A DNA stretch of 54,229 bases from Abditibacteriaceae bacterium (GTDB taxonomy: Bacteria; Armatimonadota; Abditibacteriia; Abditibacteriales; Abditibacteriaceae): the NCBI GenBank assembly GCA_031425655.1, contig JANPJS010000069.1, positions 1 through 54,229 on the forward strand, in the 5' to 3' direction. Of this stretch, positions 6,001 to 12,000 are shown piece by piece. A program made the position numbers. Positions within the stretch are counted from its first letter, which is position 1; each line of letters starts with the position of its first letter.

Positions 6001-9000
6001 ACCACGAAATCGAGATCGCGGTGGAAAACAGTGAAGCCCGGAACGGTTTGCAGCAACTCCCCCAAACTCCGATAGCCTCGATCTTGAATGACGCGCCTCG
6101 GAAACAGGTAAACGCTGCCGGGCGCGTCATCAATTTTCTCGTCCACACGCGACACGGTGGAGACCTGCACCTTCATCAAGTCTTCAAGGCTCAAATCATC
6201 CAATTCAGAGGACTTCGGCTTGGCCAGTTCAGTAGCGGGCACCGGTTCGGTAGCGGCAGGCACGTCGGCGGGAATTGGCGCCTCGTCCGCCGCGCGAGCC
6301 GCGAAAAGGGACGAAGCCAAACACAATCCGCCCAATCCCAGCACACAGAATTTCCACGTCGAAGCCCAACGCAATGCACGGCAAACCCGTTGGCTTTTCA
6401 GCCGGAGACGACTTTCCCAGAAGCGGTTCATAGCTCCTCCTTCGACCGATTGAATTGCATCTTCGCAGACGACAGGGTGTTAATGATTATATTATGCCGC
6501 AGACTGCACTTGGGCGTTGGTTTGCAAGGAGTAAAAGCGTCGGGTTCTCGTTACTGCCACGCGCACAGCGATGCGACGTAAGCCGCCGAGCCGTCGCGCA
6601 GCCAGCCGTCGAGTTGGGCTTGATCTTTCAATTGTTGTCCGCGCCCGCGCGAAACGGCCACGAAACGGCAATTTACGTCCGGCAAAGCGGTCATGTCGCC
6701 CCACAACTTCTCGAATTGCGCGACGGGAAACACGTCTTCCTGCCCGTGTCCCCAACGCCGTTTCACGTCTTTGAGCGTGACGTAAGTCGGAACGCGCATC
6801 GCAAGGGCGCGAATCGCGTGTGTCACTTCCATCGCATCGCCGAGTGTTGCGCGCGTTAATCCGAAAGCGGCGAGCAGGCCGTCAATGTGAATCCACGTTG
6901 TGAGCGTGTTGTAATACGAAAGCCCGAATTCCTGTTCTTCGCGCGGCATCGCCAAGCCTTCGACCAGGCGCACACGCCCGTCTACGCGCGCTAATCCGCC
7001 GCCGCGATCTTCCAAGCGGCGCGGGATGACCTCAAAAGTCAGCGCGGCGCCGCTTTCGATGTGCAGGCCGAGCAGCGACGGGTCGGCGTTGGCGCCCAGC
7101 GTATCAATGTTGTGCAACATCAAATGCTGCAATTGCGGCTGCGCGGCTAAAAGCGACGCCAAAGTGCCGTTGCGCAGCAAATTGGGGATTTCATACCAGT
7201 GCCCGACGGGATGCAGGCATTGCATCGGCAAATTGTCGGTGTAATCGCCGGCCTCACCGCTTTGCTGTGCCCAATTCAAGAGCGCCGCCTGCCCGCTGAG
7301 CCGCACTTTTTGCGCCTGCGTGTCGAGTTGCTGTTGCGGCATTTCTTCCCACGCGAAGCGCAAATCGCGCACGGTGGGAATCATGCGCAGGCCGATGGCG
7401 CGGCCCGGCGACAGCAGCAACGGGCCGGGATAATCGTAGTTATTTTCTGCCGCTAAAAACTCTTCAATCGGGCCGTGCGTGGGCTGGCTGGTGGTGATAA
7501 TATGCGGCAGCGCGCCGCCGAATTGCTGCTGCACACGGCGGCTTTTGGCGAGATGCACTTCTAAAAACGTGCGATGGCGCCCGTCGAATTTGGCGAAAGG
7601 ATGCAACGCTTTCACGACGCCCGCGCCCTGCGTCCAGCGGCTGCCCACGCCCGCCGCCAGCGTGACAATTGCCACTTCGCAGGCTGCTAACGAGGTTTCG
7701 CCGCGTTGCCGCACAGCGTCGGAGGCATAATCGGCTTCGCTGAAAACGTCGCCGGGCGCCACGTCGCGGATGTCGGTGGTGACAGGCAAACGGTTTTGCG
7801 CCAATCCGATGCGTCCGCTTTTTAAATCGGCGCGAATTTGCTCGTGTTGCACAGCGTCGAAGCCAAATTCGTTGAGCAAATGCGCCAAGTCTTCGGAGGA
7901 GTTTGCGTCCTGCGCGGGAGTCGGCAGCAAACGGTCGAGCAGCGTTGGCATCATGCGGCTAAATTCGGGGCGCGAATGGCACACGGCGGCGAAAGTTTCG
8001 AGTTCGGCGCGTTGCGCGGGGCGCAGCCGGCGCGGATCGAGGCGCATCAAACGCGGCACGACGAGCGCGTAATATTCGGCGGGCAGAGGCGCGCTGGCGG
8101 ATGGTAAGAGTTCGGCCCAGGTGCCGCGCTCGTTGATGGCGAAATCGTAAACCACCGGCTCCATCGCAAACGGCAGCGCACTTTCGAGTTGGCTTCGCAG
8201 CGCGCTCATGCTTTGCTGCAACGCGATTTGCGCTTCGGCTTTGCGCTTCGGCGCGAAAATAAAGCCCATGCCGCCGCCGGCCATGCCGCCGAGCATCCAA
8301 AAGCCCCAGAAATCGGCGCCGAAGCGCGTTTTCACTTCGGCGATGAGCCGTTCCGTATAAACATTGCTGACCCACGGCACGATGGTTTGCAGCGGCCCGA
8401 AAAAGTTTTGCGTCGTCGCAGCGCCAATCGCTTCGATGTCGCCCTCGCGCAGGTGCCGCAGAATGTCGTCCAAAATGCGCCGCGTTGCGCCGCGAGCCTG
8501 CCATTCCTGCGGCGAGCGCAGCAGGTATTTTTCGGTCACCATTTCCAAAATCGGCCCGACGTTTTGCGCCATGCCGCCGTGAACCAAAACCAAGCTTTCC
8601 TGCAAAGCGCGGCGCGTTGCGGGCGGCGCTTGTGCATCGTCCAAAATGTGATGCGATGGCAATAATCGGCCCCGGCTGATGCCCCATTCGGGGTCATTTG
8701 GCGCGGAATTTTGCCCTTCGATCAACTTGATGCCGGGCCACACGCCGCCCGAATCCTGCCAGCCTCCGCCCGAACCGGCCAGCCATTCGCCCAAAATCGC
8801 CCGCGCTGCCACTAAAGATCGCTCGGTTTCTTCGAGCGCGCCGGTTAAATTTCGCGTTTGTCCGGTCGCGCGCATACAGGCAGCGATGAGCGCGGCCAAA
8901 AGGTTAGTCGAAACCGCGAGGCGCGAGCCTTTGGGAATGCGATTGACGTTGCTGACGAGTTCAATTCCGCGCCCCGGCCCGGCAAGGCGCTCCAACAACG

Positions 9001-12000
9001 CCACCAGACTTTGCTCCGAGCCTTCGATGCCCGGCGGCACCAATCCCGACGCGATTAAAGCCGCTTTCAAAAGTCCCAGATAATCGCGCGCGAAATCGAA
9101 AACTTCGTCTAAGCTGGTGATGTCGGCGCTGGCGCCCAAATCCACGCTGACAAGGCGCAAAACCGGCTCGTCAATGATGCGAAAATAGGCTTCGACCGGC
9201 GGCTGCGGGACAGGTTTTTCGACGTTTTGCGCGTCCAAAACTGCGAGGTCAATCGAGACGTTCAGCACGCGAGCGCCTTCGGGAAAATCCATGCCCAAAA
9301 AGAAAATGTCGCTCCACGCGCTGTGCGTCAAATCCATGCGCACCGGCGTGCGCTCCTGCAAAACCGGATAGCCGCCGTGCGCGGCGTCGAATTGCAAAAG
9401 TTCGGGGCGAACGCGGAGCGGCTGGTCGCCGGGATGCCCGACGCGAAACATCCATTGGTTGCCGCGCACCGAGCGCACGCTGCGCCGCACCTGATCGGCT
9501 AAAGTTTGAAAAGCCAGACGATGATAGGCCGTCGCCAGCGCGCTGCTGAGCGCATCGCTCGGCCCCTGCTCGTTTTGCGCTTGAAGAAAAAGCACGATGG
9601 CTTCCTCGAAACGGCGATTGAGCAGATGCAAATAGCCTTCAAAGGGAATGCGGCCCAGCGGCGTCAGTCTGGAGCGCGCTGGAATATGAAACCGATGAAT
9701 CGCGTAAAGGAAAAAGCAGGCGCGCACGCGCTCGTAGAGGTTTTCTGAAGCGTGGCGAAAGATTTCAAGATCAGCGCATTCGTCCAACAATTGCGCCAGC
9801 GAGGCGCCTTCGCACGCTTCGTCTAACGCATGGTCGCGTTGCGCTGGATCAGAAGACGTGATGATTGTGCGAAATTTCATGCTATCGGGTGGCTGTTTAA
9901 TAGGACGCGGGCTTCGCACACGGAGCTTCGCTGCGCGGATTTTCGCTGTTCACTTCCAATCCAAAGAAAATCAGCGTAAACCCGCGCAGCGAAGCTCCGT
10001 GTGCGAAGCCCGCGTCCCATTCAAAGCCCTGAGGCTTCCTCGACCAGATTTTCCATGCCGGAGGCCAAATCGCGGCGCGCCAGCAAATCGCAGATTTCGG
10101 CTAAAACTTCGGCGCGGTCTTTTCCGCTCAGCGACAGCGCGAGTTGTGCGATGAGCAGGCCGTAATTGGCATCCAAAGCGTAGCGGCGGCCTTGCACCTG
10201 CAAGGCTAAATAACGCTCGCGGCGTCCTAATTCATCTAAAATCGGCGAAAGCTGCAGACGGTCTTGTGGCCCGCTTTGCGCGATGCGCTGCTGCAAAAGT
10301 TCCATCACGGTCGGGGTTAAAACGTGCATTCCGAAAAAGCACAGATAATGCCCGGCGCGCAGGCCCGGCACCATTAAAGATTGCTCGGCGGCGGTCGGTG
10401 TGGGCTTTTCGATGACTCTTTCGACTTCATAGAGATCACTCGTGCTTTTGACGCGCTGTCCGCCAACGGCGCCGAAATACGGTAACAAATGCTCGCGCGT
10501 CGGCTGCACGCCCGAAAGGGCGCAATCGTGATTTTGCGCGGCGACCACAAGCTGCTGCGCGCAGCCGGCGCCCATATCGCTGATGTAAATATGGTCGCCA
10601 ACCATGTGCAAAAACGCTTCGTCGCCGGTCCATTCGCGGGCGCAGAAAAGCGCGTGGCCGTAGCCAAGCGGCTGCTCTTGTGCCACGAACTGCAAACTGC
10701 CGGCATCTGGCCCCGCCGCCTGACGATAGGCGGTTTCGTCTCCGGCGCAGACCACCACGCATATCTCCTGCACACCGGCGCCTAAGGCTTCTTCGATGAT
10801 GATCTTGAGGACGGATTTCTGGCGCCCGTCGCGGTCAACTAAAGTTTGCAGCGGCAGAGTGCGCTGAAAACGCGACGCCGCCGTAATCACAGCTTTGGTG
10901 ATTTTCATAGTTTTGCTGTTGCCGGGTGCATCTACGTTGAATGGAACACGGAGCTTCGCTACGCGGAAACGGCACGGATTTGCGCAGTTTTTTCTTTAAA
11001 TTGAACTGCGGAAATCCGCGCATGAAATCGGGGCACCCGCTTGCGGGCAGGATAGCGAAGCTCCGTGCTCCATTCAGCATTCCTTATCTTAAGCCGCCGG
11101 AATCGCTTTCAAAGCCTCGTTCGCTTGTTTCAGCGTGTTTTCGTCCTTCGAGGTGGCGACGATTTTATCCAGCGCGGCTCTGGCTTCGACGGGATTTTTG
11201 CCGGCGATGCTGCGCGCGATGCCGATAGCCGCTAAAGCCGCTTCGTTACGCACGTTTTCGTCGTCGAGCAGCGGCGTAATGAGCGCCAACGATTGCGGTG
11301 TATTGGTTTTCGACAGGCCGGAGATAATCGTCCTTCGCTCTTGCGCTTCGGTGGCGATTTTCAGTGCCGGCTCGTAAAGTTCCACGGCGTTCGCGCCGCC
11401 TTGCACGCGCCCTTCGGCCAAGCGCAAATAGCCGCGCAACGAGAGAATTTGATGCACTTTTCCGGGGCCATTGGCGGCGAGACCCAGCAAATCTTTCATG
11501 GCGCCGGCGTCGGGCGTGACGGCTAAAGCGCGAATCGCCGCGTCCTGAATTTTCGCGTCGGCGTTGTTTACATCAGCGCGCAGCGCGTTCAGCGCCGCGC
11601 CGCCGCCCTGCGCGCCCAGCACTTTCAAAATCGAAACGCGATTTTCAAACGGCGCGGCGGGTAGGGCAGCGACAAGCGCAGCGGTGCGGTCGGCTTCGGA
11701 AGGCACTAACTTCGCTAAGCGCGTGACGAGATTTTCGGCAACTCCGCGCTGTCCGTTATTTTTCATAGAGAGCAGCACGCCGACGGCAGAAGCGTAATCG
11801 GCGGCGCCCGCGACTTCGCCCAGAGCGCTGAGCGCATTGTCCTGCGAAGTCGAGGTGTCGTCAGCAGCGATTTTGAAAAGCAGCGGACGCGCGCTCATCG
11901 TGTAACGCTGGCCCAGAGCGTAAACCAATTCGCGGCGCACAGTCGGTTCGGCATCGGGAATCGCGGCCATAATCGCGTCGTCCAGAGCCGCGCCGCGCAT

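Follow-up and report, generated by a model that had tools for sequence, protein, structure and literature searches.

A kinase–pyrophosphorylase fusion and its GalU-fold partner: a candidate two-gene nucleotide-sugar module in an Abditibacteriaceae bacterium

In the literature, the only natural kinase–pyrophosphorylase fusions that we found are Fkp and GKUP. Fkp of Bacteroides fragilis (NF009948; PDB 5yys, 9iip, 9iit), a bifunctional L-fucokinase/GDP-fucose pyrophosphorylase, combines in one chain, as the protein described here is predicted to, a GHMP sugar-1-kinase and a pyrophosphorylase. Among characterised proteins none is nearer to the fusion kinase than the Fkp kinase domain, and the catalytic residues correspond one to one. 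In the fusion, however, the order is reversed (kinase first), a UDPGP-family domain replaces the GFPP/beta-helix domain, Fkp T602 and the P-loop differ, and there is a separate partner protein. GKUP, the glucuronokinase–pyrophosphorylase of zebrafish and Xenopus, likewise joins a GHMP kinase to a nucleotidyltransferase for UDP-sugar salvage, but its kinase comes from a different branch, its transferase is short, bacterial-type and N-terminal, and it has no UDPGP-family domain. The GKUP transferase domain is nearly inactive (PMC3938481), which parallels the degenerate partner described below. Engineered GalK–uridylyltransferase and NahK–GlmU chimeras (PMC11267548) perform the conversion proposed here, in which a single chain turns a free sugar into a UDP-sugar, but are artificial and use other domain families; the Solitalea GalK/uridyltransferase, also considered, is an engineered chimera. 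Phaeodactylum UGP1 and UGP2, considered as characterised members, are described in the available text of PMC10356853 as a UGP–phosphoglucomutase and a single-domain plastid enzyme, and so do not have the kinase–pyrophosphorylase architecture. Eukaryote-type UGPase, UAP and USP enzymes (PF01704) share their fold family and most active-site residues with the fusion pyrophosphorylase, which matches UGPases of fungi and plants best. Compared with UGPase, the fusion domain lies behind a kinase, has Leu for the uracil Gln in the main clade, carries a helical insertion of 40–50 aa ahead of the PxGH motif and lacks the C-terminal beta-helix region; its FEKLWGD sequence resembles a UAP motif.

GlgD and the AGPase large subunit are non-catalytic pyrophosphorylase homologues that regulate an active enzyme. 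The potato AGPase large subunit is mentioned in PMC4643126, and the accessible sections of PMC11228364 describe in GMPPA/GMPPB a non-catalytic homologue that binds nucleotide sugar and controls its active counterpart. In these systems the regulator is a paralogue of the catalytic subunit, whereas the partner belongs to another pyrophosphorylase family than its enzyme, and its binding and regulatory role are proposals. The partner has the GalU fold (GalU, TIGR01099; GalF, TIGR01105), and its GXG(T/S)R region is broken as in GalF, an inactive GalU paralogue according to the available parts of PMC4643126 and PMC11796359. GalF lost Thr-Arg by substitution and accompanies GalU; the partner, unlike GalF, keeps the Arg, has the Lys-Glu loop deleted, accompanies an unrelated enzyme and is derived from a separate 'VDRDG' GalU-like group.

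Both genes named in the initial annotation were recovered as open reading frames in the window, by which we mean the whole 54,229-nucleotide stretch analysed. The features are as follows.

6551..9880, minus strand: fusion gene, 1109 aa, with helical N-terminus, GHMP sugar kinase, insert and UDPGP-family pyrophosphorylase
6551..7888, minus strand: UDPGP-family pyrophosphorylase, fusion residues 665–1109 (Pfam, profile matches, residue mapping)
7916..8092, minus strand: helical insert, fusion residues 597–655 (presence/absence, tree, co-variation scan)
8105..9373, minus strand: GHMP kinase, fucokinase/Fkp branch, fusion residues 170–592 (alignment to 5yys, residue conservation, profile scores)
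9386..9880, minus strand: all-helical N-terminal region, fusion residues 1–165, conserved; TPR-like character is a lead only
9896..10024, no strand: long palindrome (arms of 53 nt) separating partner and fusion, one of a REP-like family found across the genome
10021..10908, minus strand: partner gene, 295 aa, GalU fold
10938..11076, no strand: second palindrome of the same REP-like family, just upstream of the partner

With confidence slightly better than even, and judging from sequence comparison, we favour the view that these genes form a two-gene nucleotide-sugar module in which the fusion enzyme is regulated by a GalU-fold pseudoenzyme. The fusion reading frame has 1109 codons counted from ATG and 1122 from an upstream GTG. 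Its N-terminal region matched TPR clusters in the Atlas features at 0.83–0.87, short of the lead threshold of 0.9, and IFT70 by sequence profile with an E-value of 0.05. The palindromes occur genome-wide and are not specific to this locus, where a promoter scan gave 0 sites and terminators scored no better than chance. No third conserved gene or sugar-specific neighbour was found, the commonest neighbour family occurring at 6 of 80 loci (a count that leaves out opposite-frame shadows of the two genes); for this reason the HEAT and Gfo/Idh/MocA genes upstream were not counted as parts of the module. The 140 nearest neighbours of fusion loci are likewise miscellaneous.

Most of the searches behind the initial annotation were reproduced: the NCBIfam Fkp match (E 8.3e-22 across residues 176–552), the PDB 9iip match (E 1.8e-11), the C-terminal likeness to eukaryotic UGPases (PDB matches at residues 883–1001), and 781 homologous genome stretches, the best 80 of which are 59–74% identical, with the GalU-like gene beside the fusion in 71 of those 80. 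The WcbL likeness reached only E 0.16 by sequence profile. Motifs placed at P316, G369 and L741 were confirmed, while GGMxGGG begins at G531 rather than 530. Across 81 alignment rows the three motifs of the kinase show little or no variation, as claimed; the same holds for A742, G744, S747 and R748 of the pyrophosphorylase (80/81) but not for position 743 (Ala in 61, Gly in 19). The pyrophosphorylase had been given a start near residue 730, and its profile match in fact begins near residue 665–700. With a diatom-type homologue as query, 8000 of 8000 scored candidates passed 1e-50. 'Very common' overstates the case: the gene is present in 10/100 sampled genomes of its own phylum (one of the 10 copies internally deleted), 8/140 of Verrucomicrobiota and 1/200 of Chloroflexota, leaving out genomes picked as sample centres, and in 1/26 other genomes of its own order, Abditibacteriales. 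The earlier work had missed the diatom and Omnitrophota members as well as the helical insert whose occurrence follows that of the partner. Six patterns returned no viral occurrence in IMG/VR.

Residue-level evidence in both domains supports the reading of the fusion as two enzymes in one chain that would convert free sugar into NDP-sugar. In the pyrophosphorylase, Pfam UDPGP (PF01704) matches residues 889–1000 at 37.8 bits (gathering threshold 22), and HHalign probabilities place UGPase-type first (99.1%, 401 columns), then UAP-type (98.3%) and USP-type (59%). The label 'eukaryote-type' marks no anomaly, since PF01704 occurs in 126/141 sampled Verrucomicrobiota genomes, nearly always as a stand-alone gene. 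By alignment, K757, H894, N924, D926, E974 and N991 correspond to Aspergillus nidulans Lys135, His228, Asn256, Asp258, Glu307 and Asn329, and K1085 to Lys403 by our own motif reading of the HHalign alignment; G893 is also kept. These phosphate, Mg and sugar residues, whose roles are given in the accessible parts of PMC10470519 and PMC5832301, are retained in 79–80 of 81 fusion rows. The uracil-binding Gln198 position, set from the Q-xxx-P motif rather than from a structure, is L831, Leu in 80/83 and Gln in 3; Gln is kept in 20/20 stand-alone relatives. The 'UDP' of the predicted product consequently rests on family membership. The uridine-pocket Gly123 position is Ala743 in most fusion proteins, and the position of the second glucose-binding residue, Asn331, is the variable residue 993. 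The chain stops 24 residues past K1085, leaving no room for a C-terminal beta-helix region. This domain would use a nucleoside triphosphate, in all likelihood UTP, to activate a sugar-1-phosphate, and may also form UDP-glucose from glucose-1-phosphate where GalU is absent.

The latter fits the genome of the window (97% complete), in which neither a conventional GalU nor a sucrose synthase was found, nor any PF01704 gene besides the fusion, and which encodes two NDP-sugar dehydrogenases. An alternative is that the module serves specifically in glucuronate salvage and UDP-glucose supply, replacing GalU and a glucuronokinase-like kinase; we regard this as unlikely, though it stands ahead of the other alternatives. 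Among 14 tested Abditibacteriaceae genomes, nine have the GalU–kinase pair and no fusion, two the fusion and neither gene, none both and three neither. One genome with GalU and the kinase (G006) carries an internally deleted fusion. The kinase of the pair bears the motif GNPSDGYFG, which matches a lily glucuronokinase peptide (PMC2823444). The family split gives p=0.11, however, and the tests within the phylum for exclusion of GalU or of the kinase p=0.09 and 0.17; in Verrucomicrobiota neither a general replacement of GalU nor one of the kinase was supported (2/9 fusion genomes against 26/132 others, p=1). One fusion-bearing genome (G456) is 84% complete and its fusion is frameshifted. The fusion kinase is also far nearer to Fkp than to the glucuronokinase-like proteins: its profile scored the Fkp-like protein of this genome at 84 bits, no GalK- or glucuronokinase-like protein above 11 and no glucuronokinase-like protein above 7. 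In place of GNPSDxYFG the fusion reads HS[AG]WSDIFF, and it has no N-terminal bacterial-type transferase domain of the GKUP kind.

Alignment to 5yys supports assignment of the fusion kinase to the Fkp/fucokinase branch of GHMP sugar-1-kinases. Six of the seven mapped Fkp active-site residues are retained and invariant in 81/81 rows, R592, W599 and D601 as R181, W189 and D191, and E751, Q761 and D762 as E365, Q375 and D376 (roles as given in the available text of PMC11982464); all four named diatom species keep them. The substrate motif PxRxD...W.D, the GGGWQD motif of the Fkp branch and the third GHMP motif, GxGGG, are present; the ATP loop carries Arg and Ala at two of its Gly positions. With ATP, the kinase would phosphorylate a free monosaccharide at C1 as Fkp does, with D376 as the base and with stabilisation by R181 and Mg. 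Our best guess is a D-gluco-configured sugar (glucuronate, glucose or xylose together), at a little under even confidence, followed by some other sugar and last by an L-fucose-type one. In a somewhat less probable alternative than glucuronate salvage, the fusion would be the counterpart of Fkp for L-fucose, L-galactose, D-arabinose or L-rhamnose, a sugar of the L type, and might use some nucleotide besides UTP: the fucose-contacting W599, D601, Q761 and D762 are kept and the main clade has lost the uracil Gln. Against this, T602 is Ile, the D...QD set is common to glucuronokinase-like kinases, the second domain is of UGPase/UAP type, not GFPP, and both the window's genome and another (G078) encode a separate Fkp-like protein too. 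The protein scored 76.7 bits against NF009948 (cut-off 721), over the kinase part only, and contains no fucokinase or GFPP Pfam domain.

The partner had been taken for an ordinary GalU-like nucleotidyltransferase, a view that the alignment does not sustain. It lacks the GxGT loop (AGxxQR replaces GxG(T/S)R, with T20 lost), an eight-residue loop with the essential Lys/Glu, and some 24 residues from the region of the oligomer helix; the eight-residue deletion, found at 81/83 loci, removes the equivalents of K31 and E32 in the TKxxPKE segment of GalU. It scored 81 bits against TIGR01099 (cut-off 326.8) and 31 against TIGR01105 (threshold 659), with Gln-Arg rather than Met-His. The available sections of PMC11796359 report that Ala mutants of Klebsiella GalU keep 0.45% (K31) and 1.38% (E32) activity and that tetramer loss inactivates GalU. 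Uracil, Mg and sugar-phosphate contacts are retained: by the residue roles in Table 1 of that paper, GalU Gln109, Gly114, Asp137, Gly179, Glu201 and Lys202 are Q77, G82, D105, G146, E167 and K168 in 83/83 partners. The partner is thus probably a pseudoenzyme, although the catalytic Arg (R16, 75/83) and Mg-binding Asp are kept, so residual activity is possible.

The two genes travel together. The very same 9/141 Verrucomicrobiota and 2/201 Chloroflexota genomes hold both, and each of the eight degenerate partners in the window's own phylum belongs to a genome that has the fusion, two without linkage to it; unlinked partners occur in G003, G040 and G083. Natural partner–fusion single chains (P0166, P0168, P0169, P0171, P0172, P0177) mostly look like read-through or frameshift and were therefore not used as evidence. 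The association follows the helical insert of about 60 aa between kinase and pyrophosphorylase: 109/114 insert-bearing loci have an adjacent partner, compared with 1/15 insert-less loci, where lack of an adjacent partner on a metagenome contig is not absence from the genome. Insert-less, partner-less forms occupy two places on the tree, and diatom copies have no insert. Two genomes (G001, G031) have the insert, yet only the intact stand-alone relative was seen. When 53 fusion windows were scanned for co-variation with the partner, the top two overlapped the insert, and on the partner side the C-terminal helices came out highest; the margin is small (0.248, compared with 0.204 for the top window elsewhere in the fusion) and the loci are related. 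We propose from these patterns that residues 597–655 are the docking site. Homology of the insert to GalU C-terminal helices found no support above controls: HHalign gave it a probability of 0.2% and E 0.26, and five of ten control windows scored higher. A likeness is visible by eye and HHalign aligns there, a lead only.

In the regulatory model that we favour, the partner would still bind UDP-sugar or UTP, dock through its C-terminal helices onto the insert and act as a product-sensing subunit that tunes or stabilises the fusion, in the manner of GMPPA or GalF, except that the enzyme it acts on is not its paralogue. Alternatively, the fusion chemistry is the same and the partner still works as a nucleotidyltransferase, slow or specialised perhaps, for a second sugar-1-phosphate or nucleotide; linkage would then reflect membership of one pathway, whether or not the proteins touch. 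Conservation of R16, Q77, D105, E167, K168 and the RYD motif speaks for this, as do intact versions next to the fusion in G051, G077, L163 and a Hymenobacter plasmid (motifs are intact in 2/83 adjacent partners) and intact relatives fused or adjacent to GalK-like kinases. The losses in 81/83 partners, at sites where single Ala mutations leave about 1% of GalU activity or less, together with further erosion of the N-terminal motif in one subclade, make it improbable. Least likely is an inactive kinase half in a regulated UGPase: compared with PxGSGLGxSS, the ten-residue P-loop replaces Fkp G715 with an invariant R320 and G717 with A322 (SRLAVS), and the window's protein gave no Pfam GHMP match above threshold, but all catalytic residues are invariant, diatoms included, and divergent members with a canonical SGLAVS loop match GHMP_kinases_N.

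Tentatively, the family may be a third natural one-chain architecture for nucleotide-sugar salvage, spread over many bacterial phyla and pennate diatoms, in which a dead GalU was captured by a 60-residue insert imitating the GalU dimer helices and controls the enzyme. If so, a pseudoenzyme would regulate a pyrophosphorylase of another family, and in GalU-less lineages UDP-glucose would come from the fusion, possibly directly from free glucose through a C1 kinase that bypasses hexokinase and phosphoglucomutase. Such a natural enzyme would be what glyco-engineers now construct by hand (PMC11267548). In thousands of database records the fusion goes simply by UTP-glucose-1-phosphate uridylyltransferase or hypothetical, masking a kinase that occurs in polysaccharide-degrading bacteria and diatoms. 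The partner and the insert, along with naturally occurring versions that are intact, degenerate or partner-less, would open the origin of a pseudoenzyme regulator to direct test with two soluble proteins.

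The fusion protein and its GalU-like partner are encoded by neighboring genes separated by 140 bp, and the fusion carries an additional segment between its two enzyme domains:

6551-9880, minus strand: fusion gene (1109 aa)
10021-10908, minus strand: partner gene (295 aa)
residues 597-655 of the fusion: predicted helical insert between kinase and pyrophosphorylase

Our searches reproduced the figures of the initial annotation for the Fkp match of the fusion (E 8.3e-22, residues 176-552), its matches to 9iip (E 1.8e-11) and to eukaryotic UGPases, the 781 GTDB stretches with a fusion (best 80 at 59-74%) and the adjacent partner in 71 of these 80 best loci. 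The fusion had also been described as very common; it is indeed present in several phyla, but its frequency is patchy. Since the centre genomes of our samples were picked for carrying the fusion, rates are given with and, in brackets, without them: 11/101 (10/100) genomes in Armatimonadota, 9/141 (8/140) in Verrucomicrobiota and 2/201 (1/200) in Chloroflexota. Within the order of the window's genome, 2 of 27 genomes carry it.

Broken and divergent copies were also observed. Residues ~180-819 are lost in frame at L100:7363-8775 (genome G006), and frameshifts interrupt the gene at L107:8001-11306 and L237:3277-6575, on a Hymenobacter volaticus plasmid and in genome G456, respectively; on the plasmid, the frameshifted fusion adjoins an intact-type partner. 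Long proteins of Omnitrophota type (P0016, P0025, P0034, P0035, P0148; locus L188) hold divergent copies, some with signal-peptide-like starts and ROK and inositol-monophosphatase domains, and in P0148 (Ca. Kaelpia) the order of the two enzymes is reversed. Pennate diatoms encode a full-length fusion with all kinase motifs intact (P0371, P0377, P0379-P0381), and the oxymonad Blattamonas a degenerate one (P0033). These eukaryotic rows nest among bacterial rows in a tree whose backbone support is weak.

Alignment to 5yys places Fkp residues R592, W599, D601, E751, Q761 and D762, whose active-site roles are described in PMC11982464, at R181, W189, D191, E365, Q375 and D376 of the fusion, each conserved in 81/81 rows (the window together with the best 80 loci, of which one is truncated). 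Fkp T602 is replaced by Ile, and in the ATP loop invariant Arg and Ala stand at the positions of Fkp Gly; divergent members retain SGLAVS there. A profile of the fusion kinase gave 84 bits with the Fkp-like protein of the same genome, against at most 11 with GalK-like and glucuronokinase-like proteins. Because of these scores and the conserved residues, the domain is classed as a fucokinase-branch GHMP kinase with an intact catalytic set. The same residues do not single out a sugar, since the Asp and the Gln-Asp pair are common to the glucuronokinase-like kinase and a separate Fkp-like gene is encoded in the same genome.

The C-terminal domain had been labelled a eukaryote-type pyrophosphorylase. 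The UGPase/UAP match holds, but the domain is no oddity in bacteria: PF01704 occurs in 126 of 141 sampled Verrucomicrobiota genomes, where it is almost invariably a gene of its own. With a profile built from 71 sequences, E values ranged from 1e-23 to 6e-12 for UGPases and from 8e-9 to 4e-3 for UAPs and reached 0.06 for one USP, and HHalign against stand-alone Verrucomicrobiota relatives gave 99.1% for the UGPase type, 98.3% for the UAP type and 59% for the USP type. UGPase active-site residues (roles in PMC10470519 and PMC5832301) are matched by K757, G893, H894, N924, D926, E974 and N991, and K1085 was assigned as the PVKT lysine by manual reading of an R-x-R-xxxx-K motif. In 80 of 83 fusions Leu831 takes the place of the uracil-binding Gln, which appears as Q-xxx-P in 20/20 stand-alone relatives; the remaining three, namely both intact-partner loci and one other, have Gln. 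Position 993 is variable. These two features weaken a plain UGPase label, so that UTP is graded as the likely nucleotide.

The best match of the partner is GalU, at 81 bits compared with a cut-off of 327. Among 83 paired loci (the window and the 82 that passed filters for coverage and redundancy), one span of the partner measures 13 residues in 81 and 21 in the two intact ones, and the same 81 also lack at least 24 residues further along. The first deletion takes out the segment equivalent to Klebsiella GalU K27, K31 and E32; in that enzyme K31A leaves 0.45% and E32A 1.38% of activity (PMC11796359). GalU T20 has become Gln, R21 is retained in 75/83 partners, and Q109, G114, D137, G179, E201 and K202 in 83/83. 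This pattern suggests that catalysis was lost while the ligand pocket was retained, and the partner is quite probably dead as an enzyme, or almost so. It derives from a group of intact GalU-like proteins marked by a VDRDG motif, which occur on their own, next to GalK-like kinases, joined to such kinases in one chain, or next to the fusion. The combinations with a galactokinase-like GHMP kinase (P0179-P0186; L102:4598-7214; L103:4125-6684) include proteins of ~640-750 aa from a cyanobacterium, Acidobacteriota and Verrucomicrobiota, which constitute a further natural kinase-uridylyltransferase fusion. In a mostly freshwater-looking subclade (loci L128, L135, L142-L149, L151, L153-L155, L158-L168), the N-terminal motif of the partner is more eroded and the insert more divergent too.

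In Verrucomicrobiota (9 of 141 genomes) and Chloroflexota (2 of 201), fusion and partner are present in exactly the same genomes. Eight of the 11 Armatimonadota fusion genomes hold a degenerate partner (two unlinked), two an intact adjacent one and one only a stand-alone relative; the degenerate form is absent from the other 90 genomes of the phylum. For the nine loci lacking an adjacent partner, five genomes were checked: in four the partner lies elsewhere or beyond a contig end, and the fifth has an intact relative only.

No third gene was found travelling with the pair in the neighborhoods of the fusion loci. Upstream in the window, on the same strand, are a HEAT-repeat protein and a Tat-exported Gfo/Idh/MocA oxidoreductase (11089-14546), the latter family being near the pair in just 6/80 loci. 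Positions 19612-26615 hold the start of a cluster for polysaccharide export (dehydratase, Wza/SLBB, Wzc-like), which is a possible consumer of nucleotide sugars; it is not conserved near the pair elsewhere. REP-like palindromes flank the partner gene on both sides (9896-10024 and 10938-11076), with a further element at 14-27; the genome contains 27 + 28 copies of the 14-base core, which forms inverted pairs 60-120 bases apart in 13 cases. A HipA-like kinase (HipA_2) and a DUF3037 gene (14707-16469) are likely a toxin-antitoxin-type pair, and 732-6431 encodes consecutively a TonB-dependent receptor, a YfiR-like protein and a hybrid histidine kinase, matching the TOL_0244/TOL_0243 signalling module.

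The helical insert tracks the partner. From 159 loci scanned, 12 with too little flank and 18 not spanning the region were set aside; in the 129 counted, a partner is adjacent in 109/114 insert-bearing and 1/15 insert-less loci, a comparison in which loci share kinship and metagenome contigs cannot prove a gene missing from its genome. At the single insert-less locus with a partner, L141, a separate scan scored a divergent insert at 13.9 bits. In a midpoint-rooted FastTree phylogeny, forms without insert and partner make up one basal group and appear a second time within the insert-bearing loci (L118, L124; support 0.99), while the insert is present in two basal members; it was therefore likely lost more than once. 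All 24 diatom-type matches examined lack it (Nitzschia, Seminavis, Cylindrotheca and Mayamaea among them). When distance correlation was scanned over 82 pairs and 53 fusion windows, residues 586-645 (0.248) and 626-685 (0.227) ranked highest, followed by 0.204. The best partner window, 241-275, corresponds to GalU helices that form a tight dimer (PMC11796359); by eye, the second half of the insert resembles these helices, and in HHalign it scored no higher against them than controls.

Which sugar is used was approached through gene content. Our best guess, a tentative one, is a D-gluco-configured sugar. No conventional GalU, second PF01704 gene or sucrose synthase was found in the window's genome (97% complete), which encodes two NDP-sugar dehydrogenases as well as RmlA-, ManC- and GlgC-type transferases that might supply part of the UDP-glucose too. 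All three other genomes of the genus have, in place of the fusion, GalU adjoining a kinase with the lily glucuronokinase peptide motif (PMC2823444). Among 14 family members, nine have only this pair, two only the fusion, none both and three neither (p=0.11); G006 has, besides the complete pair, a fusion with an internal deletion. Replacement is not generalised, because in Armatimonadota GalU occurs in 1/10 fusion genomes vs 35/90 others (p=0.09) and the kinase in 1/10 vs 30/90 (p=0.17), and in Verrucomicrobiota GalU/kinase in 2/9 vs 26/132 (p=1). An L-fucose-type substrate appears unlikely. Conventional GalU and the glucuronokinase-like GHMP kinase occur in the identical 28 of 141 Verrucomicrobiota genomes (G107-G245), mostly as neighbors (L104:6258-8152; L197-L212), and in 0/26 of those with a full eukaryote-type UGPase; this pair is a bacterial two-gene counterpart of zebrafish GKUP.

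Fkp and GKUP share the working principle of the fusion, which differs from both in domain order and pyrophosphorylase family. For these reasons, and because membership tests failed, it is assigned to neither. The transferase of GKUP is reported as almost inactive (PMC3938481). The only natural kinase-transferase examples named in the part seen of PMC11267548 are Fkp and the fusion with a glucuronokinase, and the main text of a recent FKP phylogeny (PMC12732313) contains neither 'UDP' nor 'uridylyltransferase'; no description of the family was found in the literature searched, with subscription journals mostly, and supplements, outside it. In the mechanism that we propose, the kinase would phosphorylate a sugar at C1 with ATP and the C-terminal domain would transfer a nucleotidyl group, probably from UTP; this two-enzyme core is highly probable. 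The partner would dock onto the insert, which we consider reasonably probable, and may sense the product, by analogy with GMPPA (PMC11228364) and GalF (PMC4643126). The whole model, a two-enzyme fusion with a docked regulatory partner, is slightly favored overall. We conclude that the fusion family is real and looks undescribed, and that its putative pseudoenzyme component is unexpected.
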